Both the position numbers and the translations under genes were made by a program. Below are positions 32,982 through 50,048 of a DNA stretch of 64,000 nucleotides, in pieces. The notes under the pieces are model-generated. The model ran no database searches, was not told the origin of the DNA, and saw nothing but the letters and a program-made list of their open reading frames with translations. How positions within the stretch are numbered: the stretch's first letter is position 1; every line of letters begins with the position of its first letter. The DNA comes from a virus (Duplodnaviria > Caudoviricetes), in IMG/VR virus record IMGVR_UViG_3300025016_000004. One strand, given 5' to 3'.

Positions 32982-33842
32982 ATGAAAAAATTATCTAAGA
33001 TATATGAAGGTATTTTAAGGGAGTTCAAGAAAGACGGTGATGTTGATTATGAAATGTATGAAAGATATGAAAATTATTCATTAAGAATTTTACAGTTATT
33101 CTTAGAACAAAATAATGAGGATTACACAGCTAACATGCCTTGGTGATTAATTCCATATCCAAGATTAAAAAAAATATGGGAAGATTGGGCTAAATTCGGA
33201 TTTGTTAGAGATGAAAAAGGGTTAGAAGAAATTTGCGACGTAATGGAATCAAATACACTTAAAATTTCAGTTATAACAATGTTAGCTGGTCATACATCTG
33301 ATAGTCCAGATGATTATTATGAAGATGCTTTTGGATATCACATAGAGGGTGTAATTCAAAAATTCTATCAAAATCAACCAAGACCAGAAGATAACTATCA
33401 TAGTAACGACCCAAACCAATTAGAGTTTAATTGGGGGCACCCTGATGGTAAGAAAAAAGAACCAGTTAAAAAATCTAACGTTCAAATTATTGATGACCCT
33501 TATTTAGAAAATCTTTTAATTGATGTAGACCCAAAATCAGTTAGTTATGAAGACCTTAAAAAAATGTTGATGGATGAATTAATCAATAAATTCCTTTGGT
33601 ATTACATTGATGACCCAGCAATAGGTCAACCAAGACTTAGCGATTATGGATTAAAACCGTTAGTTGATTTAACGTCACAATTAAGAAGTACTTATGATTC
33701 AGCTGAAAAAGTAGTTATAGTAGATAAAATGCTAAATGTGGTACATCAAAGGTCAGATTTAGCATCATGGTATGTGAGAGGTGGCTCAAACGCATTAAGC
33801 GACTTATCATCTTCACCTAGTGAAAGAGAAACACAAGAATAA
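32982..33842 (+). pseudogene. Putative virion protein gene with one in-frame TGA (33144)
   Basis: MKKLSKIYEGILRE... continues in frame through a single TGA into the 33243 ORF. Confidence 0.7.
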
Positions 33843-34086
33843 AATGAATAAAAAAAGAATACAACCGAAATTTACTGATATGACCGAGGAAGAAATAAAC
33901 GCTTGGTTAGAAAAAATGAAGTATCTTGAAGGTGATAGTAAAAATACATATGCAACCAAACAAATCAGAGATGGTAGGGGTTGGATATTTTAAAATGTTA
34001 AAAAATGTTAAAATAAATAATGTCAGTTTTTTATTTAAATATTTGTGTAAGTTTTAAGGTTGTTTATCAAAAAGCTGTTACTGCAA

Positions 34087-34172
34087 GATGTGCCTAACCT
34101 GAAAAAGTGGTTTGTAGAAATATGCAAAGGAAACATAGGGGAGTATTGAGTTGACCCCTCACATCACTCAAC
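34087..34172 (+). ncRNA. Candidate pseudoknotted structured RNA
   Basis: GATGTG/CACATC, CCTA/TAGG, TTTGTA/TGCAAA, GGGG/CCCC, loop TTGAGT pairing with downstream ACTCAA. Confidence 0.45.
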
Positions 34173-34186
34173 TTTAAAACTGTAAT

Positions 34187-34258
34187 GGGATTATAGCTCA
34201 GGGGTAGAGTGATGACCTCTAAAACCAAAAGTCGTGGGTTCGAATCCCACTAGTCCCT
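34187..34258 (+). tRNA. tRNA with CTA (amber) anticodon, weakened anticodon stem
   Basis: Canonical acceptor, D and T arms; loop CTCTAAA; only 2 of 5 anticodon-stem pairs. Confidence 0.7.
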
Positions 34259-34281
34259 CTAAAATATTAAAATAAAGTAAA

Positions 34282-34422
34282 ATGAAAGACACTTAGATTA
34301 AAAACAACAAATTAATAATAATCACTAGACGTGATTTATCAATTGGTATTCAGGCAGTTCAGGCTGGCCATTGTTCATGCTATGGATGGTGGAAGATGAC
34401 ATCACGCATTATGATTCGCTAG
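34282..34422 (+). pseudogene. Pth2-like peptidyl-tRNA hydrolase 5' fragment with in-frame TAG at codon 5
   Basis: MKDT*IKNNKLIIITRRDLSIGIQAVQAGH; similarity is lost after AGH. Confidence 0.65.
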
Positions 34423-34694
34423 AGGTTCTGCTGAAAGCGGATAACGATGCCAACGTTATCAATAGGTATAGAGATACCATAGAACTGGTTCTGCCTTTCT
34501 TAAAGTTCTAATACCAAAAAGAGATAATTGTAAAAAATTGTCTCTTTTTTTTGTTTATTACATTTATTATTAGTATATTTGCAGAGAGTAAGTTGTAATA
34601 ATAAAAGATTAATAAATCAAACAATTGAATTAGTAAAGGTTTTATAGGATTTCCCTTTCTTTTATTTACAAAATTATGTTTTAAGAATTAGATT

Positions 34695-35120
34695 ATGGAA
34701 AATAAAGGGTGGAAAGATGTTAGAGAAATACCAGCCAGCGGTAAACGCAAATGGCATGGCGGTGCTTATACATTAGCTTTCGTATATTCAAATAAAGGTA
34801 ACTTCCTTTTAAAAGGTTATGGAGCTGAAATTAGAGAATATTTACAAGACTTAAAAAGTAAGGGTTATAAATATATACTTAATGAAACTCTATGGCATAC
34901 AGATAGTTGGACAGGTGAGAAAAACTTTAGAAGTATATGGTCAGTATCAAGTCAAAGTACTTATATAGATGAACCAGAACCAAAATCTAGATATAGAAAA
35001 GAGGATAAATTCAAATGGGTTATTAAACGGTTTGGTGAACACGGTGAAGATACTAAAACACTAAAATTTAAAAGGCTCCCAAATAAGTGGGTACCTGAAT
35101 ATGATACAATAATATATTAA
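34695..35120 (+). CDS. Hypothetical protein
   Basis: 141-aa ORF. Confidence 0.55.
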   Translation: MENKGWKDVREIPASGKRKWHGGAYTLAFVYSNKGNFLLKGYGAEIREYLQDLKSKGYKYILNETLWHTDSWTGEKNFRSIWSVSSQSTYIDEPEPKSRYRKEDKFKWVIKRFGEHGEDTKTLKFKRLPNKWVPEYDTIIY

Positions 35121-35245
35121 TGTGTAAAGTGGGTTACTATAAAAAGCTTAATTGCCCCAGTAGTTCGGATAGTGAGAAAAACTAGACTGCATAATTACTC
35201 CGACAAAAATCTGAACTACAACACATTATTATATATTTATAAAAT

Positions 35246-35638
35246 ATGGAAAATAAATTAAAACTTTCCGAAATATTTCAGGAAGAACCTATAGTTGTTT
35301 ATCATGGTACATTAACCAAATTTGTTGATTCAATTAAAAAAAATGGATTAACTCATAAAAATTATTATGAACCAAAATGGTTTATGGTTTCTACTGATAT
35401 TGAAAGTGCTTTATATCATGCAACACCAGATGAGGGTGAAACTGCCTCAGTTATTGAGTTTAAAGTTCCTCTAACTAATGATAAATGGTATGGTTATCCT
35501 TATTTTTGGCCACCCTATAAAAGAGATGGTAATTCTATGTGGTTTGCATTAAAACAACCATTAGATGGTAATCTAATCAATAAAGTACACAACGTACCTT
35601 ATGCAACCTTTATTAAACAAAAATATAAGGGATATTAA
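35246..35638 (+). CDS. ADP-ribosyltransferase-fold protein
   Basis: VYHGT...IKKNGL...FMVSTDIESALYHA. Confidence 0.55.
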   Translation: MENKLKLSEIFQEEPIVVYHGTLTKFVDSIKKNGLTHKNYYEPKWFMVSTDIESALYHATPDEGETASVIEFKVPLTNDKWYGYPYFWPPYKRDGNSMWFALKQPLDGNLINKVHNVPYATFIKQKYKGY

Positions 35639-35640
35639 AT

Positions 35641-35901
35641 ATGGAAAATAGAAAAATATTTGTTTGCAGTTGTCATTCACTAGAACACCAATTTGCGTTT
35701 TGGTATGACGAAGAATATAATGAGCTTTATTTTGAACCACACTTACATGATAATTCTTGGCCTTGGTATAAAATATTTTGGCAAAGGTTAAGATATGTAT
35801 TTGGAAACAAATCAAGATTTGGTGCTTGGGATGAAGTAATAATCAAACCAGAAGATGCTAAACAAATAATTGAATACTTAAATAAAATAAGTGAGAATTA
35901 A
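35641..35901 (+). CDS. Hypothetical protein
   Basis: 86-aa ORF, CSCHS motif. Confidence 0.5.
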   Translation: MENRKIFVCSCHSLEHQFAFWYDEEYNELYFEPHLHDNSWPWYKIFWQRLRYVFGNKSRFGAWDEVIIKPEDAKQIIEYLNKISEN

Positions 35902-36310
35902 AAAGAAGAACATATTATTTGAAGAAAGGGTTAAATCTAACATGGCCGTACCCAATGAGGTTAAGCAACTTCATTCTTTATTTGTAAAGAATGGGTTTCA
36001 ACTTTATATCGTTGGTGGTGCTGTGCGTGATACCCTTATGGGTAAACCAATCAAAGATTATGACTTAGCAACTGATGCTCCACCAGAAACGGTTGAGAAG
36101 ATGTTGAAAAGTGCTGAAATTAGAACTATTGGAACTGGCGCAGCATTCGGGGTTATTAACGCATATGTAAATGATGAAGAATACGAGATTGCCACATTTA
36201 GGTCTGACGGATTTGATAGTGATGAAGATGAATTAAAAAAATTTAAGGATTATTTGAAATCCTTAAATAATGGTTCTTTTGAAAAGTTTGAAAATAATTT
36301 AATGAAATAG
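35891..36310 (+). CDS. cca: CCA-adding enzyme / tRNA nucleotidyltransferase, N-terminal part
   Basis: YIVGGAVRD, DYDLAT, EIATFRSD, then a 33-aa tail and stop. Confidence 0.85.
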   Translation: MRIKKKNILFEERVKSNMAVPNEVKQLHSLFVKNGFQLYIVGGAVRDTLMGKPIKDYDLATDAPPETVEKMLKSAEIRTIGTGAAFGVINAYVNDEEYEIATFRSDGFDSDEDELKKFKDYLKSLNNGSFEKFENNLMK

Positions 36311-36343
36311 CGACTTTTAGACTTATTTCTCATATTTATTAAT

Positions 36344-37018
36344 ATGAGAAAAGGTTATATATATGAATTAGTTTGTCCTATTACGAATGAATGTAGGTAT
36401 ATAGGGCAAACAATACAAGAATTAAATAAAAGGTTATATAAGCATAAATATTGTATGCGAAATAACCCTAGTCATAAAAATAGTTGGTTAATCAAATTAT
36501 CTAATGAATCTTCATTAGATAATTTGATTATAAAATTAATTGAAGAATGTGATAGTGATATTTTAAATGAACGTGAAATTTATTGGATTGAAAAATATCA
36601 AAATGAAGGTTATCAGCTAACTAATATGACTGAAGGTGGTAATTGTGGTTCTAGAGGTTATAAACATACTAAAGAAGCCATTAAGAAGATTGCCGAAGCT
36701 GGGAAAAGAGTTGGTTATAAACATACTAAAGAAGCGAAAAAAAAGATATCAAATTCATTACTAGGTAAGAGAGGTAGGAATACTGGAAACAAACATTCAA
36801 TAGAAACCAAAAAAAAGATATCTGAAAGTAAGAAGGGAATTGTGAGTTGGAATGCACAACCAGTTTTACAATTAGATAAAGAAGATAAAATAATAAACGA
36901 GTGGAGAAGTGCTAAATATGCCGCTGAACAACTTAGTTTGAGTCAAGGTAATATTTGGGCGGTTACTAATGGTGATAGAAAAAGTTGTGGTGGATATAAA
37001 TGGATTTTAAAAAAATGA
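36344..37018 (+). CDS. GIY-YIG homing endonuclease with NUMOD3/NUMOD1 repeats
   Basis: GYIYELV...RYIGQT, NMTEGG, KHTKEAK, KSCGGYKW. Confidence 0.85.
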   Translation: MRKGYIYELVCPITNECRYIGQTIQELNKRLYKHKYCMRNNPSHKNSWLIKLSNESSLDNLIIKLIEECDSDILNEREIYWIEKYQNEGYQLTNMTEGGNCGSRGYKHTKEAIKKIAEAGKRVGYKHTKEAKKKISNSLLGKRGRNTGNKHSIETKKKISESKKGIVSWNAQPVLQLDKEDKIINEWRSAKYAAEQLSLSQGNIWAVTNGDRKSCGGYKWILKK

Positions 37019-37200
37019 ATAAATTGAAAAGAAAAGTTGGAGATAAAGTTACTTTGAATGATAAATTTGGTAATGATGAAGGAAAAGAAGCAATAATTAA
37101 CTCAATAGAAACTTCTAAAAATGGTAGAGAGTGGTATCGACTAACTTATAAAGGTAAATTAGACCCATGGAATTGGTGTGATTCAGATTTTAAAAATTAA
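37015..37200 (+). CDS. Small SH3/KOW-like hypothetical protein
   Basis: KVGDKVTL...WYRLTY. Confidence 0.4.
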   Translation: MNKLKRKVGDKVTLNDKFGNDEGKEAIINSIETSKNGREWYRLTYKGKLDPWNWCDSDFKN

Positions 37201-37201
37201 T

Positions 37202-38086
37202 ATGAAAACTTGGAAAGATATAGCTAAAAAAACAGTACCTAATGAATTTAATACATTCATGAAGGGTAAAGGCAGAAGACCTGATTCTGTAATATTTTCT
37301 GATATTGAAACTGATGTTAAAAGACGTGATTTAACAATCAATGCATTATTCTACGATATTTCAACAAAAGAGATAGTAGATTTAGTTGGTGGCATAAAAG
37401 ACATTAATAATGGTGTTGTAAGGACCGTAGGAGACGCTGGAGAGCGTTTTGGGGAAGATAGACTAAGAATCCTTAGAGCAATTAGATTTGCGGGTAGAAC
37501 GGGTTCTAAATTAGACCCAGCAATTGATAAGTCATTAAGACAAGATAATTCATTAGAAGGTATTTCTGGTGAACGTATTATGGATGAGTTTGTTAAAGGT
37601 ATCAAATCAGCGAAATCAACTAAATATTTTTTATCATTAATTGATAAATATAATTTATTTGATTGGATTTTTAAAGGTATTTCACCAATTAACAAACAAT
37701 TCATTGAGTCTAATGACCCAATATTAGTTATAGCGGTATTACTAAAGGATGTATCATATGATACTATCAGTAAACAATTGAATGCGCTTAAGTATTCATC
37801 CAATCAAATAAAACCAATAGTATTTATGGTAGCTTATTACCAATATTTCTCTAAAGATACTTTTTATACGTTGAAAAAAATGTATAATACTTTTGAGGCA
37901 AATGGTAATACGTTTTTATCATTCATAGAGCTTATGGGTGGTAACACTGAAATTGCACGTAAGTTTATCAATTATCAGCTATCAATTACTGGTGATATGG
38001 TAAAACAAAAATACGGAATGAAAGATGGTCCTGAATTAGGGGCTAAGATAAAAGAGTTAGAAACTCAACAGTTTTTTAAAATATAA
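37202..38086 (+). CDS. cca: CCA-adding enzyme, C-terminal part
   Basis: GRRPDSV...RRDLTINA, EDRLRILRAIRF, SGERI. Confidence 0.85.
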   Translation: MKTWKDIAKKTVPNEFNTFMKGKGRRPDSVIFSDIETDVKRRDLTINALFYDISTKEIVDLVGGIKDINNGVVRTVGDAGERFGEDRLRILRAIRFAGRTGSKLDPAIDKSLRQDNSLEGISGERIMDEFVKGIKSAKSTKYFLSLIDKYNLFDWIFKGISPINKQFIESNDPILVIAVLLKDVSYDTISKQLNALKYSSNQIKPIVFMVAYYQYFSKDTFYTLKKMYNTFEANGNTFLSFIELMGGNTEIARKFINYQLSITGDMVKQKYGMKDGPELGAKIKELETQQFFKI

Positions 38087-38200
38087 TTTTCTATGTTCAT
38101 TGGTAATAAATGGTATGTGTATTTATTGCACATACCCTTTTTTTGTTAAAAACTTGTTTATATCATTTATCTTGTGTTATATTGTGCAAAATATAAAATC

Positions 38201-38824
38201 ATGAAAAAAGAATTTTATGAAAACATCCCAATAGTTGATATTACAACGGTATCTAAAGATGAAATGAAAATGGAACCATATATTGAAACGTACACTGGAT
38301 TAAGAGTATATTTTAATGACATACATAAAGATATAATATCGATACACGACATAGCACATTCATTATCTCAAATATGTAGATTTACTGGACATACAAAAGA
38401 ATTTTATAGCGTAGCACAACATTCAGTATTGGTTGCGGATGCACAAACTACGTTACCAGAAAAAAGAGCTGGGTTATTACATGATGCTACTGAAACTTAT
38501 GTGAATGACTTACCAAGCCCATTAAAAGCTTGCACAGATTTGGGTGATTATAAAAATTTAGAAAATAGATTTCACCATGTCATCAATCAAAAATATAAAG
38601 TTAATGATGGAATGACACCTAACATAAAGAAAGCTGATTTAGCAGCTTTATTCACTGAAAAGAGGGATGTTCTAAACAAACCTAGTGATTGGGGTTGGGG
38701 TTATGATATCATACCATTTGACGATATAATAATACCTTTAGGTCCTAAAGAAGCAAAAGCTTTATTCATTAAACGTTTTATAGAATTATTTCCAACTGAA
38801 GCAAAAAAAGAAGGTTTAATATAA
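38201..38824 (+). CDS. HD-domain phosphohydrolase (YfbR-like)
   Basis: YSVAQHSV, LLHDATETY, KADL. Confidence 0.8.
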   Translation: MKKEFYENIPIVDITTVSKDEMKMEPYIETYTGLRVYFNDIHKDIISIHDIAHSLSQICRFTGHTKEFYSVAQHSVLVADAQTTLPEKRAGLLHDATETYVNDLPSPLKACTDLGDYKNLENRFHHVINQKYKVNDGMTPNIKKADLAALFTEKRDVLNKPSDWGWGYDIIPFDDIIIPLGPKEAKALFIKRFIELFPTEAKKEGLI

Positions 38825-38845
38825 GGTTATACGATATTTATTATT

Positions 38846-39388
38846 ATGAAGAATATTTTAAGAATTGTCATAATAATAATATTAGTTTTTATAGGTCTAA
38901 AATTAATCTTTCCAAGTAAATACGGAGATAAATTAAAAGAGGTGTCTTTTGATAAAGATGCCAACATAATTATAAATTTTACCGATAATAAATCTTTAGA
39001 TACCATATACCATGTAGGGTTAGAAGTTTTAGGTATTAAAGGAAAAAAATTTGTTATTCGTGAAATTCAAGATAATGTAAAAACAGGGTATAAAGATGAA
39101 TTAATTCTTATTGGTTCAGTTGTTAAGTATAAGGAATATTATTTGATTTATACCAAATTAACCAACAATAAAAAGATGATAGATATTGCTTCTCATGAAT
39201 TAATACATGTTAAACAATATATGGATAATCGATTAGAAGTAACACCTAAAAACCTTAGATGGGAAAACAAATTTTATACATTACCTCTTACAGTAAGCTA
39301 TGAAGACGCACCATGGGAAATTGAAGCTTTTGATAAAGCTAAGGAATTTAAAGATTTAATGTATAATTCTTTATTAGTAAAAAAATAA
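38846..39388 (+). CDS. Secreted/membrane-anchored HExxH metallopeptidase-like protein
   Basis: N-terminal TM, SHELIHVKQY, PWEIEA. Confidence 0.65.
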   Translation: MKNILRIVIIIILVFIGLKLIFPSKYGDKLKEVSFDKDANIIINFTDNKSLDTIYHVGLEVLGIKGKKFVIREIQDNVKTGYKDELILIGSVVKYKEYYLIYTKLTNNKKMIDIASHELIHVKQYMDNRLEVTPKNLRWENKFYTLPLTVSYEDAPWEIEAFDKAKEFKDLMYNSLLVKK

Positions 39389-39739
39389 TTATTGTACAGC
39401 AGCAGTCGCTAATCCTTTATCTTTATGACCTAATTTAAGTACTTGCAAATCTTTATCAGTATATTCAACACCATCAATCACTAATAGAACTAATTTATCT
39501 TTTGAATATTTAGCTTTACTTATTAATTCACCATTGATATAATGTTTCCATTCGCCATCACGAAGTAATTCACCTTTAACTAGAATATAAAAACCAGTTT
39601 GGTATATATCATCATTAATTGAGTTTTCAGTATAAGCAAAATAGTTATCTGAAATTTGTTTTAGCTTATCTTTTGATTGTCCGTTTACTACAGAGATGTA
39701 GCAAAATAATGCGATAATTGTAATAATAATTCTTTTCAT
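39389..39739 (-). CDS. Secreted hypothetical protein
   Basis: Signal-peptide-like N-terminus. Confidence 0.5.
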   Translation of the reverse strand: MKRIIITIIALFCYISVVNGQSKDKLKQISDNYFAYTENSINDDIYQTGFYILVKGELLRDGEWKHYINGELISKAKYSKDKLVLLVIDGVEYTDKDLQVLKLGHKDKGLATAAVQ

Positions 39740-39892
39740 AATTAGTTCCTTTTTAAATAAATATGCAATGTTAACTTAATGTTACGTAATTGTTAAGGTA
39801 ATTATACTAAATTTTTTTTATAAAAGCAAGGAAATTTTAATAAAAATTTGTTTATACCACATATTTTTAATATCTTTACGTAAAATATATGT

Positions 39893-40423
39893 ATGAAAAA
39901 TATAAAAATGAAACTTTTGAAGGTAACTTTATTAATTATGTTTGGTTGGGTAATTGGATTAATCATTTCAATAAAGGGAATTTCAAGGGATAATGATAAT
40001 CTAATTATCAATTGTACTAACCAAAAATATTTAGACACTATAATTCATTCTGGGTTAAATATGTTAGAGATAAAAAAAGCTCGAATTATAATTTCAGATA
40101 TCCCAAGTTATTTTAAACCTAACAATGATGCGAAAGAACCGATAGTAGGTAATACTCTAGGTTATATTACGCATATTTCAGGTAATTACTATTCAATTCG
40201 TATTATTAAAGCAGATAAAAATGAGTCTATTAGAATTCTATCCCATGAATTAGTTCATTTATACCAATATCACCATAAGCTGTTAATTAATAACGATGAT
40301 TATTATGTTTGGGGATATGATACTATATATAAACCAACAAGTTACACTTATTTTGATAGACCTTGGGAAGTCCAAGCTAGAAGAGCTGGCGATATGTTAG
40401 AATATTTATTGAAAACTAATTAA
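39893..40423 (+). CDS. HExxH metallopeptidase-like paralog
   Basis: SHELVHLYQY, PWEVQA. Confidence 0.65.
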   Translation: MKNIKMKLLKVTLLIMFGWVIGLIISIKGISRDNDNLIINCTNQKYLDTIIHSGLNMLEIKKARIIISDIPSYFKPNNDAKEPIVGNTLGYITHISGNYYSIRIIKADKNESIRILSHELVHLYQYHHKLLINNDDYYVWGYDTIYKPTSYTYFDRPWEVQARRAGDMLEYLLKTN

Positions 40424-40466
40424 ATTTCTTTAAAATAGAGTTTTCAACGCTAATTTAAATATTTAT

Positions 40467-40514
40467 AAAGGTGAGCGTAAAACCCACCCATCGGAACGTG
40501 GGTGGGTAGTTCAC
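40467..40514 (+). mobile_element. IS200/IS605-type solo-end scar (48 bp)
   Basis: TTTAT|aaaggtgagcgtaaaacccacccatcggaacgtgggtgggtagttcac; left-end start joined to right-end finish of the tnpB element type. Confidence 0.8.
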
Positions 40515-40731
40515 TACGTAAGTTAATGTATTTGGATTTAATTTGCAATATGAAAATGAAAAATACGTTAATTTAATTTCACAATATTTCATTCATAATT
40601 AATTAAAAATCAATTAGTTAAAAAATAATTAAAAAAAAAAGTGCAAAAAAACTTGTTTTATATTGAAACATTATGTATATTTGCACTATATATTAATAAC
40701 AAGACGGGTGAATACCCTAAAAAATTAGAAA

Positions 40732-40839
40732 ATGCAAGCAATAAGTATTATACATATTATGAGTTCGATAAATTGGAGACGTAATTCTTCAGTAGTGTCA
40801 GGTATGTCTATACTTAATAGTGGAAATTGGTTTGGTTAA
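40732..40839 (+). CDS. 35-aa leader peptide of the tRNA array
   Basis: MQAISIIHIMSSINWRRNSSVVSGMSILNSGNWFG between promoter 40676 and terminator 40868. Confidence 0.65.
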   Translation: MQAISIIHIMSSINWRRNSSVVSGMSILNSGNWFG

Positions 40840-40867
40840 CAAATTAATAAAACAAAAAGATAAGATG

Positions 40868-40901
40868 AAAATCCTGACAGAAATGTCAGGATTTTTTTTT
40901 T
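40868..40901 (+). terminator. Attenuator terminator before the tRNA array
   Basis: aaaatcctgaca-gaaa-tgtcaggattttttttt. Confidence 0.9.
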
Positions 40902-40906
40902 AATAT

Positions 40907-41002
40907 GGTATCTGTAGCAGAATTGGTAAGTAGTACCCTTATCGGGGAACATGCACTAGATTGTGGCTCTAGAGGATGCGGATTCGAGTTCCGTCTGATA
41001 CC
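40907..41002 (+). tRNA. tRNA-His(GTG) with ~22-nt D-loop insertion
   Basis: G-1:C73, CTAGA-TTGTGGC-TCTAG. Confidence 0.7.
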
Positions 41003-41035
41003 CAAAGGTTTCAATTGTACCTTAAACAATTAAAT

Positions 41036-41110
41036 GGTGTGCGTAGCTTAACTGGTTAAAGCACTAGATTGTGAGTCTAGGGGATGTGATTTCGAATATC
41101 ATCGTACACC
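41036..41110 (+). tRNA. tRNA-His(GTG)
   Basis: Canonical cloverleaf, G-1:C73. Confidence 0.85.
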
Positions 41111-41116
41111 CAAAAT

Positions 41117-41195
41117 GGTCGTGGTCGGGATGACCCCACTTCAGAGGTGAAGTGAATACATGTTTGGTTAGGGTTCGAGTCCCTTTCACTGACCC
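41117..41195 (+). tRNA. Degenerate tRNA-like element (anticodon CAG or TCA ambiguous)
   Basis: Bulged acceptor, good T-arm, loop region CTTCAGAG. Confidence 0.4.
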
Positions 41196-41276
41196 AAGTA
41201 ATTGAGAGTAATATCAATGTTCATTGACATATTGGAAGTAAATTAACGCAACTCATAATCAAGGGGTTGCGTACAC

Positions 41277-41345
41277 ACAGGTCAGGCTATGGTAGCCAAA
41301 CGCTCTCCAAAAGCGTAGGACAGAATTCGATTTTCTGGGCTTGTG
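41277..41345 (+). tRNA. tRNA-Trp(CCA)
   Basis: ACGCT-CTCCAAA-AGCGT, G73. Confidence 0.75.
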
Positions 41346-41440
41346 CGAAGTGAGTGTCGTCCACGAGATGTACGCCCTAACATTCATTGATTTGTTCGGT
41401 GACAGCCTCGGAATAGGATGTTGAGTAGGGAACGACAAAT

Positions 41441-41513
41441 ACAGATATAGTGTCAATGGCTAACACAACGGGTTCCAACCCCGTAAATCTGGGTTCGAAT
41501 CCTAGTATCTGTG
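41441..41513 (+). tRNA. tRNA-Trp(CCA); Gly(TCC) is a less likely register
   Basis: ACGGG-TTCCAAC-CCCGT, G73. Confidence 0.7.
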
Positions 41514-41518
41514 CAAAT

Positions 41519-41600
41519 ACGGATATAGTTCAATGATAGAATGGCCCCAGCGAAGGGGTTGATGGGTTCCTAGGTTTTGGTTTGATTCCCCCTGTCCGTG
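41519..41600 (+). tRNA. Degenerate tRNA-like element (CCCC-AGCGAA-GGGG)
   Basis: Acceptor and D arm present; T arm distorted. Confidence 0.4.
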
Positions 41601-41605
41601 CAAAT

Positions 41606-41675
41606 TGTGATGATTCTCAGATAGCTATATGGAGAGACATATTTGAATATGGTGGTTCGAAACCACACATCGCAT
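41606..41675 (+). tRNA. Degenerate tRNA-like element
   Basis: TGTGATG/CATCGCA acceptor, GTGG-TTCGAAA-CCAC T arm. Confidence 0.35.
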
Positions 41676-41751
41676 CAACTACTAACTTATACCGAAAAGT
41701 ATGTAAAGTATCTTGTATATAATATTTACTATACAAATATGTGTTAGACTA

Positions 41752-41841
41752 GGAGAGGTGGCAGAGTGGTCGAATGCGGCAGTCTTGAAAACTGTTGACC
41801 CCTTTCGGGGTCCGTGGGTTCGAATCCCACCCTCTCCACCA
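41752..41841 (+). tRNA. tRNA-Ser(TGA), CCA encoded
   Basis: Canonical type II cloverleaf. Confidence 0.92.
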
Positions 41842-41887
41842 GATGTACGTTTTTTGTACTTTACATTATTTTCCCATATTTATATAC

Positions 41888-42541
41888 ATGGGAAGAAAAC
41901 AAAAAAAGTATCATTATATTTATAAGACCGTAAATACATTGAGCGGTAGATATTACATTGGGATGCATTCAACTGATGATTTGAATGATGGTTATCTTGG
42001 TAGTGGAATTAGATTGAGAAGAGCAATTAATAAGCATGGCAAGGAAAATTTTAAAAGAGAAATATTGGAATTTTGTGAATCAAGAGAGTTATTAAAAGAG
42101 CGAGAAATTGAAATTGTTAATTTGAATGAGATAGCCAAGGTTGGATGTATGAATTTGAAAGTTGGTGGTTATGGTGGGTTTATTAGTGATGAACACCAGA
42201 AATTTCGTTCAGAATGTGCAAATAAAGCTTTAAAAGAAAAAAGGGAAAGGGATAAAGACTTCAATAAAGAATGGTTAAAAAAGATGAAAGAGGGGGTTCA
42301 AAAAGCTATGGATAGTGGTAAAATGACTAACATTAAAGATAATTATGATTGGACTGGTAAAACTCATAAAGAAGAAACGAAAAAGAAAATGAGCAAACCT
42401 AAGAATAAAGGTGATAGTAACTCCCAATTTGGGTCTTGTTGGATAACTAATGAAAAAATGAATAAGAAAATAAATCGAGATGACGTTATACCAGAAGGTT
42501 GGCGATTAGGTCGAGTAATGAAAAGTATCATTGGAAGGTGA
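41888..42541 (+). CDS. GIY-YIG (Seg-like) homing endonuclease
   Basis: HYIYKT...YYIGMHST...YLGSG; NUMOD3-like GKTHKEETKKKMS. Confidence 0.85.
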   Translation: MGRKQKKYHYIYKTVNTLSGRYYIGMHSTDDLNDGYLGSGIRLRRAINKHGKENFKREILEFCESRELLKEREIEIVNLNEIAKVGCMNLKVGGYGGFISDEHQKFRSECANKALKEKRERDKDFNKEWLKKMKEGVQKAMDSGKMTNIKDNYDWTGKTHKEETKKKMSKPKNKGDSNSQFGSCWITNEKMNKKINRDDVIPEGWRLGRVMKSIIGR

Positions 42542-42582
42542 TACCTAAACAGTGTGATAATATCGATTAAAGCGCACAGTTT
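42523..42582 (+). repeat. Two-hairpin ~60-nt element, copy 1
   Basis: GTATCA-ttggaagg-TGATAC then AAACAGTGTG...CGCACAGTTT. Confidence 0.8.
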
Positions 42583-42655
42583 TGTAATATAGCTCAGCGG
42601 TCAGAGCAGCCTCCTGATGTGGGGAAAGTCGATGGTTCGAATCCATCTATTACAA
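42583..42655 (+). tRNA. tRNA-Ile(GAT)
   Basis: CCTC-CTGATGT-GGGG, A73. Confidence 0.75.
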
Positions 42656-42732
42656 CAAACCATCGCAAGATATAGTTGCAACATTTATTGATAATGGTCT
42701 AGAACGTTATCTTTAGATATATCAAACGATGG

Positions 42733-42805
42733 TCCGATGTAGCTCAGTGGTTAGAGCATCCCCCTCAGAAGGGGAAGGTCGGGGGTTCAAATCCCTCTGT
42801 CGGAA
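42733..42805 (+). tRNA. Atypical tRNA, short variable loop, anticodon probably CAG
   Basis: TCCCC-TCAGAA-GGGGA; one nt short of canonical. Confidence 0.55.
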
Positions 42806-42807
42806 CA

Positions 42808-42868
42808 AAGTATCATCGGAAGGTGATACCTAAACAGTGTGATAATTACGTATAAAGCGCACAGTTTT
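42808..42868 (+). repeat. Two-hairpin ~60-nt element, copy 2
   Basis: Stems identical to copy 1; only the loops differ. Confidence 0.8.
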
Positions 42869-42940
42869 TGCGAGATAACTCAGAGAGTAGAGTGGCCCCG
42901 TGCAAGGGGAGAGTCGGGGGTTCAAGTCCCTCTCTCGCTA
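42869..42940 (+). tRNA. Atypical tRNA (GCA or TGC register ambiguous)
   Basis: CCCC-GTGCAA-GGGG. Confidence 0.5.
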
Positions 42941-42947
42941 CTAATAT

Positions 42948-43031
42948 TGCGGTGTAGTCAGTAGATGGAAGCTTGCGAGGCTCATAACCTCGTGCCGAAA
43001 GGCCCCACGGGTTCGAGTCCCGTTGCCGCTA
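42948..43031 (+). tRNA. tRNA-Met(CAT) with long variable arm and 1:72 mismatch
   Basis: CGAGG-CTCATAA-CCTCG, variable arm GCC-GAAA-GGC. Confidence 0.7.
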
Positions 43032-43130
43032 CTAAATTGCGTTAAAGTGTAAAGGTTGCATTTCGACCAATAACGTTAAATAATATGAACTTTTACATAA
43101 TTCTTTATATTTATATAAAAAGTTTAAATT

Positions 43131-43760
43131 ATGGAATGTTTAGTGTGCGAGTTAAAATTGGGTAAGGGTAGAAGAAAATTCTGTTCAGATGATTGTAGAA
43201 AACAAAATAGAATTTTACAATATAAAAAAACTGGTAATCCTAATTCTTATTCAAGACAAGTGTCTAAACATAGGTTTCGTAAATTTAATCTTATTGAGTT
43301 ACGTAATAATAAAGGGTGTGAAGAATGTGGTTATATTAAAAATATAAGTGCGTTAGATTTTCATCACTTAGTTCCAAAAGAAAAAGATTTTACGTTAGAT
43401 GCTAGAAATTTAGCTAATAGGGGTTGGGAAGAAATTTTAGTCGAATTTAGTAAATGTAAAATTCTTTGTGCTAACTGCCATAGAGAAGAACATAACCCAG
43501 ATTTAAATTTTAAGGATAGGATTAAATTTGATGAAATTGGTGAAAAAATAAAAAAAGAATCTAAATGTGTGGAATGTAATGTGAAAATTCATAATACCGC
43601 AAGTAGATGTAAAAAATGTTTTGACATGTCAAGACGAAAAAATGATAGACCAAGTAATGTAATATTGCTTGAAGATATTAAAGAATTAGGGTATAGTGGT
43701 ACTGGTAGAAAATATGGTGTTAGTGATAATACTATAAGAAAATGGGTTAAAAACTCATAA
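43131..43760 (+). CDS. HNH homing endonuclease with Zn ribbons and C-terminal HTH
   Basis: CEECG...DFHH...LCANCHREEH; GVSDNTIRKW. Confidence 0.85.
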   Translation: MECLVCELKLGKGRRKFCSDDCRKQNRILQYKKTGNPNSYSRQVSKHRFRKFNLIELRNNKGCEECGYIKNISALDFHHLVPKEKDFTLDARNLANRGWEEILVEFSKCKILCANCHREEHNPDLNFKDRIKFDEIGEKIKKESKCVECNVKIHNTASRCKKCFDMSRRKNDRPSNVILLEDIKELGYSGTGRKYGVSDNTIRKWVKNS

Positions 43761-43892
43761 ACTCTACGGGGTGGTTCGAATCCACGATACGCTACTTTGG
43801 AAGTTTAGTAAGTTTTTCCTTAAAAACAACTTACAAATTATATATCGATAAGTAATTGCCTTGATGGTTGGCTGTAAATAAATTATCATTAT

Positions 43893-43979
43893 GGGTGAGT
43901 AGCTCAGTGGGCCAGAGCGGTTGATTGTTAATCAAAGGGCCTTTATAGGTTTACGTGGGTTCGAATCCCACCTTGCCCT
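43893..43979 (+). tRNA. tRNA-Asn(GTT) with long variable arm
   Basis: TTGA-TTGTTAA-TCAA, variable arm GGGCCT-TTAT-AGGTTT. Confidence 0.65.
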
Positions 43980-44199
43980 CAAATCTTAATAATTATGGAA
44001 AAATGTAGTTAAAGAATTGGTTCAAAATTTAAGAGCCAGTGGGATTAACGTCACATATTATGATAATCCAAGTAAAGAAAAGATTGAACGTATTAATAAA
44101 CGTTTGGTAGAATTAAGAAAAAGAAATTCCTTTTAGTCCCTGAAGAAATTCAAACTTTAAGGTGCAATCTTCAATAGCTCAGTTGGTTAGAGCTAAAAT

Positions 44200-44271
44200 T
44201 CTTCTCTCGTATAAAGGTTATTACGGGTGACTGTTAATCACTTTATCTAGGTTCGAGTCCTAGGGGAAGAG
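44200..44271 (+). tRNA. tRNA-Asn(GTT)
   Basis: GGTGA-CTGTTAA-TCACT, G73. Confidence 0.85.
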
Positions 44272-44344
44272 AGTTGTCGATATTAATCCACTTCCACGTA
44301 GTGACAACTGGTAATAGATGAATTCATCTAGCTAGGAGGTTAAT
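44272..44344 (+). ncRNA. HDV-like (theta-type) ribozyme
   Basis: P1 AGTTGTC/GACAACT, P2 ATTAATC/GGTTAAT, P3 ACT/AGT, L3 TCCACGT, P1.1 CC/GG, P4 TAGATG/CATCTA, J4/2 GCTAG (C44332). Confidence 0.8.
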
Positions 44345-44588
44345 AAACGTTCATTAAGTATCTTGGTGATTATATCAAGATACTTTTGGGATGTCTTAGG
44401 TTTAACATAAGTTTGGCTACTTGTATCGATAATACATAAATCAATCTTTAAATCATGACAGGCTTTTGATTTAGATATATCATTCTCTTGAATCTTTTGT
44501 AATTTATTGTTACCATATATAGGTTCATAATGAAAGATACCATTGTTTTAGAGTTGTTAAATTCTTCTTGGGTATATAATGGTTTCAT
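44333..44588 (-). pseudogene. Internally deleted Vsr-like homing endonuclease
   Basis: MKPLYTQEEF start joined out of frame to NGIFHYEPIYG...IQEND...IDLCIIDTS...YLDII C-terminus. Confidence 0.6.
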
Positions 44589-44658
44589 AAAGTTATTTAT
44601 TTATAAATATGTTAACATTTATAAAAGACGTTTTCGAGTCCTAGGGGAAGAGCAAAAT

Positions 44659-44746
44659 GGAAGGGTGACAGAGTGGTAATTGTGCCAGTTTGCTAAACTG
44701 AGGCTGGGCGTGAAAACCCACGAGGGTTCGATTCCCTCTCCTTCCG
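44659..44746 (+). tRNA. tRNA-Ser(GCT)
   Basis: CCAGT-TTGCTAA-ACTGA, type II, G73. Confidence 0.88.
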
Positions 44747-44747
44747 C

Positions 44748-44940
44748 AATTATAATGGAAAATATTCTACTAAAAACACGTTATAGTGGAAAATATTTGT
44801 AAATTATTATAAATTTTACCGTTATAACGGAAAAAATTCTATAAAAAGTGCATTATAATGGTAAAAAATGCAAATTATTGCACTTAAATACCATTATAAC
44901 AGTATAAAGTGCAACTTATTGCACTTAACGATGTATAATA
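44748..44940. repeat. Array of palindromic TTATAA-centred boxes at 31/41-bp spacing
   Basis: Boxes at 44750, 44781, 44822, 44853, 44894. Confidence 0.7.
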
Positions 44941-44989
44941 TCTCATTCATAGATATTAATATTATAAAATAGTGAATGTCATTCAAATT

Positions 44990-45063
44990 GCCTCCGTAGC
45001 ACAACTGAATAGTGCAACACCCTTCTAAGGTGTCGGTTATAGGTTTGAATCCTATCGGGGGTA
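44990..45063 (+). tRNA. tRNA-Arg(TCT)
   Basis: ACACC-CTTCTAA-GGTGT. Confidence 0.88.
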
Positions 45064-45129
45064 CAAATTATGTTTCATAGTCGAATAGTAAGTTTTAACC
45101 TGTCATAGGTGATATGAAACATAACAAAA

Positions 45130-45206
45130 TGGGGTATAACCAGCATGCCTGATACGCATGACCAAGGTAGCGGTTGAAAACGAGGGTTCGAATCCCTCCG
45201 CCCCAA
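45130..45206 (+). tRNA. D-arm-permuted tRNA, anticodon GAT (Ile)
   Basis: TA-ACC-AG-[CATGC CTGATAC GCATG]-ACCAA-GGT-AGCGG...T arm. Confidence 0.65.
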
Positions 45207-45212
45207 CAAAAT

Positions 45213-45301
45213 GCTGGTGTAGCGGTGGGAGCTTATATCTCCTATACCCGTAGAGGTTCTTGAGATAGCATCAAACAAGGGTTCGAACCCCTTCTCCAGT
45301 A
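45213..45301 (+). tRNA. D-arm-permuted tRNA, anticodon TAT (Ile)
   Basis: TA-GCGG-T-[GGGAG CTTATAT CTCCT]-ATAC-CCGT-AGAGG...T arm. Confidence 0.6.
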
Positions 45302-45306
45302 CAAAC

Positions 45307-45383
45307 GGGTCCATATCGGCTCTGGCTCATAACCAGTTGAAACCGTAATTGGTCACATGTGGGTTCGATTCCCTCTGGGCCCA
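45307..45383 (+). tRNA. D-arm-permuted tRNA, anticodon CAT
   Basis: TA-TCGG-CT-[CTGG CTCATAA CCAG]-TTGAAA-CCGT-AATTGG...T arm. Confidence 0.65.
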
Positions 45384-45425
45384 CTTTATTAAATTTGTTG
45401 ATATTTATATAAAAACAATATAAAT

Positions 45426-46028
45426 ATGGCAAATTTAAAAATTTCTGAAGAAGAATTTAAAACAGCAGCTGACTTAATCGGTTGTGAAGTAGCAGTTATA
45501 AAAGCTGTTGCAAAGATTGAAAGTAACGGAAGCGGTTTCAATGCAGATGGTACCCCAAAAACACTTTTTGAGGGACATTGGTTTCATAAATTAACAGATG
45601 GTAAGTACTCAAACGATTCTAGATATGAATCTATTTCATACGCAAAATGGACTCGTAAGTGGTATGGCAATCAAATAGTTGAAAAACAAAGATTAGATTT
45701 AGCTGGTTCTTTGGATAGAGATGCAGCGTTACAATCAGCAAGTTGGGGGGCATTTCAAATTATGGGATTCAATTATAAGTTATGTGGATTTAATACAGTT
45801 CAAGAATTCATTAATGCAATGTATAAAGGTGAGGGTACGCAATTATTAGCTTTTATAAATTTCGTTAAATCTAAAAAATTAGATGATGAATTACGTGATA
45901 AAGATTGGGCCAAATTCGCTTACTACTACAATGGTTCAGGTTATGCAATAAATAAGTATGACGAGAAAATGAAAGCGGCTTACATAAAATTTAAAGCTGA
46001 AGAGGTGGAAGAATTAAAAAAAAAGTAA
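45426..46028 (+). CDS. Endolysin, N-acetylmuramidase (DUF3380-type)
   Basis: AVAKIESNG, LFEGHWF, SASWGAFQIMGFN, FAYYYNG. Confidence 0.88.
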   Translation: MANLKISEEEFKTAADLIGCEVAVIKAVAKIESNGSGFNADGTPKTLFEGHWFHKLTDGKYSNDSRYESISYAKWTRKWYGNQIVEKQRLDLAGSLDRDAALQSASWGAFQIMGFNYKLCGFNTVQEFINAMYKGEGTQLLAFINFVKSKKLDDELRDKDWAKFAYYYNGSGYAINKYDEKMKAAYIKFKAEEVEELKKK

Positions 46029-46256
46029 AAGCGAAAGCTGAAGCTTTAATTATTGTTAAACCAAATGTTAATTGGATTAAAAAATTCTGGGAATCAATAT
46101 ATAATTGGAAAAGATAGAAATATAAGTGGAATCAAAAATTAGATAGAATAGTAAATTTTGATGATAATAAAAATAATTCAATCAGAATTCTATACCTGTT
46201 AAAATAAAAAGATAAAAATACTTTGTTTTTTAAAAAACATTTCGTATATTTGCATC

Positions 46257-47251
46257 ATGAGAATAAAAGAAGATTGTCAAGTAATTTATTTGGATAAGGA
46301 TGATTTAACAGCACATGGAGCTATTATGGTCTTTGATGACGTAGGTCTTTTTGATTTTATATTCACAACTAAAAGCCCTATCTTGAAGGCTGATATAGTT
46401 ATCTTCAAAAATAATGGTAAATACAGAGTATTAAAAAGTAGATATTAAAATGATAATAATTAAATACGTAACTTTAAAAAAACATGAGCGATTTTAGGTA
46501 CACCTAAAATTAATCATGAATGAAAAAAGTAAAACAAAGTAAAAAAAGATGGGCTTGGACTGAGGCGCAAATAAGAAGATATTGGTCAAGAGGTAGTTGG
46601 TATACACCACCAAGTTGGTTTAGAGAAAATTATCATAGAGCTAACAGGGCATATGAAAGAGCTAAAATAAACAAAATTTTAAATGGTCATATCGATGAGG
46701 ATTCTTACATAGGAACCAAATATCACCCTAGTAGTGCTAAATGGGACTGGACATGAGCATCCATCGAAACCGAGCCAAATTTAATAAGGCTTTAACCAGT
46801 ATGGAATATACTAGGTTAATGAAAATGGAAAATGTTTATTGCATAATCTGTGTAAAAAGAGCTGGTAATTATAACGCATCATGTCACCCATCAGTATTCA
46901 ACCCTAGAGGTTGGAGGTGGCGTAGAAAAAGAAATTGGAAAAATAAAAGAAAAACACAATGGAAAAATTAATAGATAACACTTCATAGGATTCAATTGCG
47001 ACAAGTAATTGAAGAGTATGAATGCCAAATTAAGAATATGGAGAGTAGTGCCTACCAGTAAGACTGGTGCCAAAGCTCCCTACTTCTTTGTAGAAACAGA
47101 GAAGTTCGAATTGGAAGACGCAGTGATAGAAGCTAATAATTTAGCTAAACAAAACTGCACTTTATCTAGGTTTGATAACTGGAATTTTTCCGTTACCAAA
47201 CAAAGGGTGAGAAAGGATGTTTTAGGAAGATACTGGAAGTATCACCAATAA
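46257..47251 (+). CDS. Four small hypothetical ORFs (46257-46448, 46520-46756, 46753-46971, 47009-47251)
   Basis: Co-oriented after promoter TATATTTG ~46245. Confidence 0.45.
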
Positions 47252-47256
47252 AATGT

Positions 47257-47379
47257 CAGACTGGGTGGGGCAAACCAGCTAAAAAACCCCCGATATTAAA
47301 CAGGTAATATTCCTGAGTAAGTGTGGCGGTGAAACATCTACCATAAGTGTATCTACAAATACTCCACTCTCAGGGTCTG
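47257..47379 (+). ncRNA. Candidate multi-stem structured RNA
   Basis: CAGAC/GTCTG, CTGG/CCAG, GATATT/AATATT, CCTGAG/CTCAGG and TGGCGGTG-AAA-CATCTACCA stems, then a T-run. Confidence 0.45.
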
Positions 47380-47465
47380 TTTTTTTATGATAAATATAAG
47401 AGAATTTGGTAAAAGTCGTTTTCGAATCCCATTCTCTCTGCTTAACATTTTTAAAAAAGTTTTAA

Positions 47466-47954
47466 ATGAAAGTATTAAAAGAATTTAAAGAACCAACAAA
47501 TGTAGTGATTACAGGTCAATGGGTAGGTGGCGAAGTTGAACCATCATTATCAATTACTGATGATGAATGTATATTAACAGTTAGAAATTTCAAAGGTAAA
47601 AAATTTAATTTAGCAGCATTAGGTAGTATTACGATATTAACCGAAGAACAATTTAATTGGTTTATAGATTCTGACCATTATAAAATGTATTGTGATGATG
47701 ATTTTGGTAATATTGAAGATATGTACATACCCATTAAAGGTTATGTTGGTAATATTGAAGCGGTTGGGGTTACATATGATGGTGATGAGACTGTAGAATG
47801 GGAAATTGAAGATTATTTCTATCACCAAGTTGAAGATGCAAACCTCATACTTGATATTAAAGGTGAATACAATTTCGATTCTATGAATGTGAATGAAGCT
47901 AAGAAGTTTTTGAAGTCTAATGAAATAAGTAAGACTATGATTAATAAACTATGA
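47466..47954 (+). CDS. Acidic hypothetical protein
   Basis: 162-aa ORF. Confidence 0.55.
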   Translation: MKVLKEFKEPTNVVITGQWVGGEVEPSLSITDDECILTVRNFKGKKFNLAALGSITILTEEQFNWFIDSDHYKMYCDDDFGNIEDMYIPIKGYVGNIEAVGVTYDGDETVEWEIEDYFYHQVEDANLILDIKGEYNFDSMNVNEAKKFLKSNEISKTMINKL

Positions 47955-48328
47955 CCAACATTAGAAGAAAAGATTAACATCCTTGAGAGAAAAATAGAAA
48001 TCCAAGCGCAACAAATATCGCAACTTTCAAACGCAGTTGATTGGTGTGAAAGAAATATAAAATTAAATTAAGATATAGTAATAGTGAAATTTGGACTGAA
48101 TCAACCAAAGATAAAACAATAGCTAAATTAAAGGATAATGGTGATATAATCAAAATCAAAATCAATGATAAAAAAATTGAATTAGATTATGATGAATTTC
48201 TTGAATTACTAACTATTATGGAAATTAAAAAAAGTAGTGATAAACAATTAAATATAGGCCAAAGTTGGTCTTAATATTACAAGATAGAGCAGAGGTAGTT
48301 TGCGGGACTCATACAGTTTTAAAAGACT

Positions 48329-48517
48329 ATGAAAAATTATAAATTAGAAAGATTAATGAATGGTGAATCATTCATCACACATGAAAAAGGAAATTCAATG
48401 GTACCACTGATTAAATCAGGACAAGACCATAAATTGGAACCATGTACAATCGATGAAGTGGGTATAAACGACATTGTTTATTGTAAAGTGAAGGGTAAGT
48501 TTTATAAAGGAGCGTAA
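48329..48517 (+). pseudogene. S24/S26-peptidase-like gene truncated by an IS scar
   Basis: GNSMVPLIKSGQ...DIVYCKVKGKFY then enters the scar and stops. Confidence 0.6.
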
Positions 48518-48554
48518 AACCCATTCATCGCTTTAGCGTGGGTGGGTAGTTCAC
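48506..48554 (+). mobile_element. IS200/IS605-type solo-end scar (49 bp)
   Basis: TTTAT|aaaggagcgtaaaacccattcatcgctttagcgtgggtgggtagttcac. Confidence 0.85.
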
Positions 48555-48588
48555 ATAGTCCAGATAAAGTTCATACCCACACTTAAAT

Positions 48589-48658
48589 TGGGATAGTTAT
48601 AGGAATACACCATAGGCTCATATCCAGTGGCAAGGCGGTTCGACTCCGCTTATCCCAA
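48589..48658 (+). tRNA. tRNA(CAT), Met or Ile2
   Basis: TGGGATA/TATCCCA acceptor, loop CTCATAT, GGCGG-TTCGACT-CCGCT. Confidence 0.65.
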
Positions 48659-48702
48659 CAAACACTTTTCAAAATTATTTTATATTTATATAAAAACATA
48701 TT

Positions 48703-49098: not shown

Positions 49099-49180
49099 TT
49101 GCGCTTCCCAACGACAGTTTACGGTATTTATTGATTATAGGTGATTTAGATTTATACTATTGCGATGAAGGAAAATAAAC

Positions 49181-50010: not shown

Positions 50011-50048
50011 AACGTATGGTTGACCACAATACCTTAATTGTGGTAAAT

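Follow-up and report, generated by a model that had tools for sequence, protein, structure and literature searches.

Leader-peptide attenuators, among them multivalent ones, are well known from Escherichia coli and Salmonella, with trpL, hisL, leuL, thrL and pheL as examples and an ilvGMEDA leader that carries Ile, Leu and Val codons. The pheM leader of pheST is a leader-peptide attenuator placed before phenylalanyl-tRNA synthetase, and in Firmicutes the classical leaders that sense tRNA are the T-box riboswitches, which precede genes for aminoacyl-tRNA synthetases and amino-acid genes. The tRNA genes of phages are usually viewed as constitutive codon-usage helpers or as spares against tRNA-cleaving defences, and we know of essentially no work on how their expression is controlled. 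Here we describe a promoter-leader-terminator cassette that lies directly 5' of a block of tRNA genes in a 64,000-nucleotide (nt) stretch of phage DNA, referred to below as the window (Caudoviricetes; IMG/VR record IMGVR_UViG_3300025016_000004). We propose that this cassette is a trp/his-style leader-peptide transcription attenuator of a phage tRNA operon, a reading to which we give a probability of roughly 80%. In the published literature we found no account of attenuation control for tRNA genes.

The elements of the cassette follow one another closely on the + strand. A Bacteroidota-type sigma-A promoter (40653..40683) is composed of TTG at 40653-40655 (-33), a 20-nt spacer and TAtaTTTG at 40676-40683 (-7), and transcription from it is expected to start at about 40690. 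The leader open reading frame (ORF) begins with ATG and has 35 codons and a TAA stop (MQAISIIHIMSSINWRRNSSVVSGMSILNSGNWFG; 40732..40839). Its codons 2-19 (40735..40788), here called the sensor, are nearly all Ile, Ser, His, Met, Asn, Trp and Arg codons. They are followed by segment 2, the predicted antiterminator strand (40794..40816), which has the core TGTCAGG at 40796-40802 and then GUAUGU and the 3' strand of a predicted hairpin, P1. The core begins 14 nt past the Trp-Arg-Arg codons (40774-40782) and is complementary to CCTGACA (40873-40879) within the intrinsic terminator (40867..40901). The latter has a 13-bp stem (5' arm 40867-79, loop GAAA, 3' arm 40884-96) and a T10 run. An AATAT spacer of 5 nt separates the T-run from the first gene of the array, a tRNA-His(GTG) with G-1 (40907..41002; Rfam RF00005). 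The preliminary description had reported this succession of promoter, 35-codon ORF, terminator and tRNA gene, together with the complementarity and its distance from Trp-Arg-Arg, and each of these proved exact at every coordinate.

Compared with the amino-acid attenuators, the cassette has in common a short translated leader rich in the codons to be sensed, an intrinsic terminator just 5' of the regulated genes, and a leader antiterminator strand that would compete for the terminator 5' arm. A 1:2 hairpin overlapped by the ORF is predicted for the family, though weak in the window, and control would depend, as in those systems, on where the ribosome stands with respect to RNA polymerase. The cassette would differ in regulating tRNA genes and not biosynthetic enzymes, which sets it apart from the classical operon leaders and would close the regulatory loop on the sensed molecule itself. 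Whereas amino-acid attenuators rely on a run of codons for 1-3 amino acids, the sensor of the window lists about nine isoacceptors, each once or a few times. Moreover, the leader has no Shine-Dalgarno sequence, unlike trp/his/ilv-type attenuators, and the cassette is found in phages of Bacteroidota-type hosts, with a TTG/TAnnTTTG promoter. T-box leaders resemble it in that a terminator/antiterminator choice is set by the supply or charging of a specific tRNA, but they are untranslated and bind uncharged tRNA by RNA-RNA contacts, whereas the window cassette would sense many tRNAs serially by means of the ribosome. The pheST leader likewise applies leader-peptide attenuation to a component of the decoding machinery; it responds to a single amino acid (Phe) and controls a synthetase, this arrangement not being known for tRNA genes, whereas the window cassette would control the tRNAs.

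The argument is built on relatives of the cassette, of which about 70 homologous leaders were found in uncultured phage contigs. Scans with DNA patterns gave 40 distinct leaders, and a search that is unbiased for leader sequence, with an ORF of about 60 residues as bait, gave 141 viral or metagenome loci and about 60 distinct leaders. This small ORF starts 11-20 nt past the T-run in 33 of the 38 relatives checked and is then followed by tRNAs; it is absent in the window and in L001, a 197-kb IMG/VR contig that has a syntenic leader with the same promoter, a 33-codon ORF, the same terminator and then tRNA-His. A search for the exact terminator pattern returned no relatives, and blastn and tblastn of the array, the leader and the leader peptide against GenBank phages returned no homologous leader; the cassettes of phage phi4:1 considered below were found only through direct inspection of its tRNA region. 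The homologous leaders are preceded by the same promoter form as the window leader, and leader cassettes were seen in dozens of lineages from lake, marine, aquifer and soil viromes. Leader and tRNAs co-occur: both were present at 44 loci and neither at 14, with 3 discordant loci (p=8e-11).

The predicted antiterminator is conserved as a pairing rather than as a sequence. The terminator was found in 38 of 40 relatives, the remaining two running into the contig end, and the 5' arms fall into 14 sequence classes among 38 leaders, with variants that include CCUGACA, CCCGAC, CCUUGACC, CCGUCUC, CUCGACUC and CCCGACCUAG. A segment at ORF codons 21-24 pairs with the arm in 38/38 homologous leaders, and for most of them the best duplex of the whole leader with the arm begins within Trp+19 to +24 nt or falls inside that stretch. 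The mean duplex energy was -13.8 kcal/mol for native pairs, -8.75 for arms of another class and -5.8 for shuffled sites, and permutation among the 14 class representatives never reached the native mean (0/20,000, p<5e-5). The complementarity, whose conservation had been named as a check in the preliminary description, is therefore kept in relatives through compensatory change despite the 14 arm classes, and an antiterminator helix that uses the terminator 5' arm is supported in silico by this covariation. Folding is consistent with such a helix. A stalled state was represented by the RNA 3' of a ribosome on the sensor, up to the point before the terminator 3' arm emerges, and its folds contained 6-12 bp of pairing between segments 2 and 3 (the latter being the terminator 5' arm) in 38/38 leaders; in the window, the minimum free energy (MFE) structure has a 7-bp helix, 40796-802/40873-79, which encloses a hairpin around the stop codon. 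When the terminator 3' arm is added to the stalled-state RNA, antiterminated and terminated folds are nearly isoenergetic. The free full-length RNAs of relatives fold the terminator, and the MFE fold of the free full-length window RNA is likewise the terminator, not the antiterminator. One contig, L045, has two tandem units of leader, small ORF and tRNAs, 1.5 kb apart; their terminator arms differ (CCCGACCUAG and GCCUUGACC) and each has a matching antiterminator.

The second line of evidence is the agreement between the codons of the sensor and the tRNAs encoded behind it. In the window, 14 of the 18 sensor codons are read by tRNAs within 6 kb downstream, and the CGT codon is read by Arg-ACG at 50375. 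All loci with enough downstream DNA possess a core array of His-GUG, Trp-CCA, Ser-UGA, Ser-GCU, Ile-GAU, Met/Ile2-CAU, Asn-GUU, Arg-ACG and Arg-UCU. For 35 distinct leaders recovered via the neighbouring gene, codons decoded by the leader's own array make up 476/595 (80%) of the sensor and 160/468 (34%) of the tail (Fisher p=9e-53), and for 92% of the array anticodons (287/311) at least one of the 17 sensor codons is cognate; in random 17-codon windows of phage ORFs, the array decodes about 4.6/17 codons (~27%). Across 68 distinct leader ORFs, positions W-11 to W+3 (W, Trp) remain within the array set in 97-100% of cases despite varying codons, and from W+6 onward the in-set fraction falls to 10-60%. 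A single sensor position varies as ATG, CAT, AGA, ATT, ATA, AAC, ATC and AAT. The claim that the isotypes of the peptide are those of the array therefore holds at the level of codon and anticodon, over some 35-68 leaders, and it follows arrays that differ. The preliminary description had singled out the Trp-Arg-Arg codons; a stall region upstream of the antiterminator is retained, but the sensor is the whole block of codons 2-19 and not these three codons alone.

Natural exchanges of the array provide a further comparison. L209, taken from a complete phage of 345 kb, agrees with its relatives in promoter, architecture and small ORF but has an array of Trp, Arg-UCU, Ala, Val, Gly, Thr, Arg-ACG, Glu, Asp, Tyr, Gln and Cys; its leader, which starts with MRQVVIETGIRFNWAQCEDIE, is correspondingly different and reads RQVVIETGIRFNWAQCEDIE. 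On a finer scale, TCT at W+4 is associated with a Ser-GGA tRNA in the array (6/9 versus 3/33, p=0.001). The cultured phage phi4:1, which together with phi17:2 is the nearest cultured relative of the window phage (both Cellulophaga phages; ligase 54% identical), has three promoter-leader-terminator cassettes, by which its array of 23 tRNAs is divided into blocks. Its leaders lie at 766-834, 1726-1809 and 3472-3570 of L301 (NC_021788.1 86300-91300); only one of them carries an annotation, as hypothetical protein gp075. The MKIQRLHLQELEQP.. leader precedes Pro, Glu, Gln, His, Leu-UAG, Leu-UAA and Arg-ACG, and a run of 11 codons in it covers all seven anticodons, the two Leu tRNAs being represented by TTA and CTA. 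The ..QLTKTGITVIDKTKGARAY.. leader precedes Ala, Lys, Ile, Gly, Met, Asp, Thr, Val and Arg-UCU, and the MKTNYCTYNNSNWSFSY.. leader precedes Tyr, Ser, Asn, Trp and Phe. Matches to the own block amount to 11/13, 12/17 and 10/17 codons and to 7/7, 8/9 and 5/5 anticodons, as against 0-4 codon matches across blocks (p=6e-14). Each phi4:1 cassette also has a terminator and a complementary ORF segment (e.g. ACAGGAU with AUCCUGU). The order of elements is that of the window, namely the same promoter type, leader, GGUAUG-adjacent antiterminator, stop-codon hairpin, terminator and tRNA block; the peptides differ from block to block in phi4:1, whereas the window has a single cassette of the R/I/N/H/M/S/W type.

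These observations bear on the alternative that the leader is a stand-alone micro-protein gene with an ordinary terminator, the tRNAs being made by leak-through or from other promoters and the complementarity being incidental. This would suit the complete promoter-ORF-terminator unit with its conserved peptide, as well as the small protein gene, and not a tRNA, that most relatives have directly after the terminator. We consider it improbable, since it leaves aside the segment complementary to the 5' arm that covaries over 14 arm classes at a fixed position, the near equality in energy of the two folds, the sensor composition that matches the array and shifts with it, and the finding of leaders only where tRNAs follow. 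In addition, the 5-nt gap between terminator and tRNA in the window leaves no room for a promoter, and no strong promoter was found inside 40908-45400, where there is one loose match at 44386 without ..GTATATTTG; the next match is at 46223.

An arrest peptide is less probable still. A nascent-peptide arrest at ..INIHMISISNWRRNS, perhaps triggered by a small molecule as in TnaC or ErmCL and not by tRNA supply, would free the antiterminator with an identical geometry of stall site and antiterminator, and the N-terminal 18 residues of the main family are indeed highly conserved, with synonymous changes. The window cassette shares with TnaC, ErmCL and SecM a short upstream ORF whose occupancy by the ribosome would remodel the RNA downstream. 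Those peptides require a specific sequence in the exit tunnel, whereas the window-type leaders conserve a composition that tracks the tRNA set, not an order. Four divergent leaders (L186, L194, L284 and L210) keep the codon and amino-acid set and shuffle its order, the peptides of L209 and of the three phi4:1 leaders are unrelated and each follows the tRNA block behind it, and substitutions in the sensor are free as long as the codon remains in the array set. Since arrest explains none of these, an arrest motif is disfavoured.

Across about 70 sequences, in AT-rich DNA, the leader frame stays open and its ATG keeps a constant distance to the promoter. Indels in it are multiples of three, and codon switches preserve the residue (Ser AGY<->TCN, Ile ATT/ATA, Arg CGT/CGC), which supports in silico its conservation as a coding sequence and agrees with the earlier suggestion of a translated element. 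Against this, the least probable alternative, a non-coding structured RNA (a small RNA, or a riboswitch-like sensor of a ligand or of uncharged tRNA) with a fortuitous ORF, could call on a region that folds better than shuffles (z=-4.3) and on several invariant nucleotides, e.g. UGGAGACG, but it is countered by the frame, the indels and the Ser switches, by the lack of any specifier-loop or T-box-like element seen, and by the lack of a credible Rfam match, T-box included, for the leader region 40690-40905 (cmscan, E<=1, 33000-52000). Over 33000-52000 that scan returned tRNAs and a few weak matches at chance level, among them BSnc120 on the opposite strand at 40850-40904. Pfam and PHROGs gave no match for the leader peptide.

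Returning to the attenuator, the layout given in the preliminary description has to be extended. Its antiterminator is supported, but a hairpin between sensor and segment 2, acting as anti-antiterminator, is predicted from the family and must be added, although it is weak in the window. This hairpin, P1, is predicted to form between the 5' half of the sensor and segment 2 together with the GUAUGU.. that comes after it, with Trp-Arg-Arg in an apical stem-loop. In the window, segment 1, the 5' strand of the predicted P1, is 40742..40767 (+), and the apical hairpin covers the Trp-Arg-Arg-Asn-Ser codons at 40772..40793 (+; AUUGGAGA / UCUUCAGU), both taken from the MFE fold. P1 is present in the MFE structure of 36 of 38 leaders, and in its register 74.7% of cells are paired as against 28-40% in slid controls. 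Its z-score against shuffles is negative in all 38 (family median z = -1.9), a moderate excess of stability, and at the core pairs of the apical hairpin 35-36 of 36 sequences retain the pairing, the only changes being between G-C and G-U. RNAalifold on a MAFFT alignment recovered a 4-bp stem only and was uninformative because the variable arms were misaligned. A further hairpin at 40826..40848 (+, MFE) holds the stop codon (40837-40839) in its loop and recurs among relatives with differing arm sequences; it may be a pause for RNA polymerase, or may bring segments 2 and 3 together. A small hairpin of the 5' untranslated region (GGGU-GAAU-ACCC, 40706..40717, +), seen in the MFE fold, has counterparts of other sequence at the same position in five relatives (L001, L083, L018, L098 and L076) and may act as a 5' stabiliser.

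We hypothesise the following sequence of events. Host RNA polymerase would start at the Bacteroidota-type promoter and a ribosome would translate the 35-codon leader, of which codons 2-19 would serve as a checklist for the His, Trp, Ser-UGA, Ser-GCU, Ile, Met/Ile2, Asn, Arg-UCU and Arg-ACG tRNAs. If any listed aminoacyl-tRNA were scarce, the ribosome would lag or stall on the sensor and segment 2 (UGUCAGG) would stay free; it would then pair with the nascent 5' arm (CCUGACA), no terminator would form and the polymerase would enter the tRNA genes. This predicted branch, from the stalled ribosome through the pairing of segment 2 with the 5' arm to readthrough, is well supported in silico. With fast decoding, the ribosome would cross segment 2 and, after its release, the sensor strand would recapture segment 2 in P1; with segment 2 captured, the 13-bp hairpin followed by U10 would form and transcription would end. 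The route from fast translation to termination may be that the ribosome covers segment 2 at the moment of decision, that P1 re-forms behind it, or both, and the direction of regulation and the role of P1 are likewise inferred. It can be surmised that tRNA synthesis would be demand-driven and self-limiting, and that the phage probably makes the array tRNAs only when ribosomes read the leader codons slowly. As triggers one may consider decay of host tRNAs, anticodon nucleases, starvation or simply a high codon demand of the phage; the depletion or cutting of host tRNAs, which the preliminary description had suggested, may be one such trigger. Its central proposal, a leader-peptide attenuator that gates the tRNA array, is supported on sequence grounds by covariation, coding conservation and the codon/anticodon match.

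Several points weigh against the attenuator. The case is purely computational. The one metatranscriptome with this phage, from an aquifer (run X23), yielded contigs identical to 40953-41107 and to 44218-44648, the latter in the Asn region, and none over the leader, a coverage that proves nothing on termination either way. The 7-mer alone is at chance level in the window (4 copies versus 3.4 expected), so that its significance derives only from the relatives. The p-values given above overstate independence because the loci are phylogenetically related, the 3x3 test in phi4:1 and the swap in L209 being least affected. For codons 2-3 (CAA and GCA) and for TCT, no cognate tRNA was detected in the window; Arg-ACG, the reader of CGT, is 9.5 kb downstream, with protein genes and another promoter (46223) in between; and the ACA (Thr) sensor codon, conserved in the family, mostly has no Thr tRNA in the array. 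The window P1 is no more stable than shuffles (z = -0.8), and pair counting in fixed columns of the family alignment gave no covariation for P1, as one of its strands is conserved, so the fold in the absence of translation is uncertain here. Segment 2 is 35 nt upstream of the stop codon, too far for a ribosome waiting there to cover it, and termination would therefore need timing or P1. The attenuator would also require transcription and translation to be coupled in these hosts.

The tRNA block itself (40907..45384, +) comprises His x2, Trp, Ser-UGA, Ile-GAU, Met/Ile2-CAU, Asn x2, Ser-GCU, Arg-UCU and atypical tRNA-like genes. The first tRNA-His scores 49.1 bits with RF00005 at 40908-41002 and has a hairpin of about 22 nt inserted in its D-loop, because of which ARAGORN at default settings misses it; an ordinary His copy follows at 41037-41111, and L001 has an 86-nt His gene at the position of the window's first tRNA-His. 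A tRNA-like gene at 41117-41200 seems to have a loop of 8 nt at the end of its anticodon arm; under relaxed settings, ARAGORN gives it a four-base anticodon, 'gagg', and a similar gene stands after the second His in L001. The X23 contig at 40953-41107 spans tRNA-His 1, the spacer and tRNA-His 2 and is precursor-like, DNA carry-over being possible. Two homing endonucleases lie within the block, a SegA-like GIY-YIG enzyme at 41795-42541 (phrog_314, 1e-40) and an HNH enzyme at 43131-43760, and an endolysin-like gene (45426-46028) is found between the block and the later Arg tRNAs. The small protein that follows the terminator in most relatives has about 57-67 residues and the pattern M.ELVRKLG.EK..DFD.IVDKY...GY.GEL.F.KE.G...IFV (L098:8590-8760, alignment A2). 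It had no match in Pfam or PHROGs, and its homologues also occur without leader or tRNAs, e.g. in megaphage LR745206.

The window is 30% GC phage DNA, and DNA of this phage is present in about 22 aquifer or groundwater sequencing runs (metagenomes), from which it possibly derives. On its + strand, TTG-N17-21-TAnnTTTG occurs 17 times against 4.7 expected, and because most copies share the ..GTATATTTG form, the leader promoter is one of the regular promoters of the phage. The recurrent form TTG(G/T)TT.. N ..(A/C)GTATATTTG stands at 2371, 27798, 28706, 34551, 40653, 46223, 51184, 54888, 59960 and 60380 (+), its matches being on the + strand with one exception, which suggests a single class of host RNA polymerase promoters across the window. 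A scan of the window for the sigma-70 consensus gave matches at chance level, this consensus being irrelevant for such a host type. A hairpin unit ending ..GTGGGTGGGTAGTTCAC is located at 40477-40515, 140 nt 5' of the leader promoter, and in the relative L035 the ..GTGGGTGGGTAGTTCAC motif directly adjoins the leader ATG. The terminator was also considered as the end of the upstream gene 39893-40423 and rejected in that role, as the promoter and the conserved ORF intervene; the 176-residue upstream protein had no relatives among viral contigs.

A broader proposition, which we put forward as a tentative and rather doubtful extension of the attenuator, is that the cassette senses attack on decoding and constitutes an inducible, self-limiting counter-defence of Bacteroidota phages, with large phages splitting their tRNAs into independently sensed regulons. 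As each array tRNA has a sensor codon, the ribosome on the leader would stall if a single one of these tRNAs were lost, and the entire set would be switched on. Such a loss might come about through host anticodon nucleases, host shut-off or host RNA decay induced by the phage, and the replacement set would include the structurally odd tRNAs of the array, which are perhaps nuclease-resistant. Cellulophaga baltica and phage phi4:1 offer a tractable, culturable system in which the cassettes can be tested. If the proposed attenuator is correct, ribosome-mediated attenuation can govern tRNA genes themselves, and one short peptide would audit about nine isoacceptors together, in a design that is widespread and, with three cassettes in phi4:1, modular. 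The leader peptide would then predict the tRNA content behind it, which would provide a new rule for annotation, and the leader would be a natural readout of which tRNAs matter to the phage.

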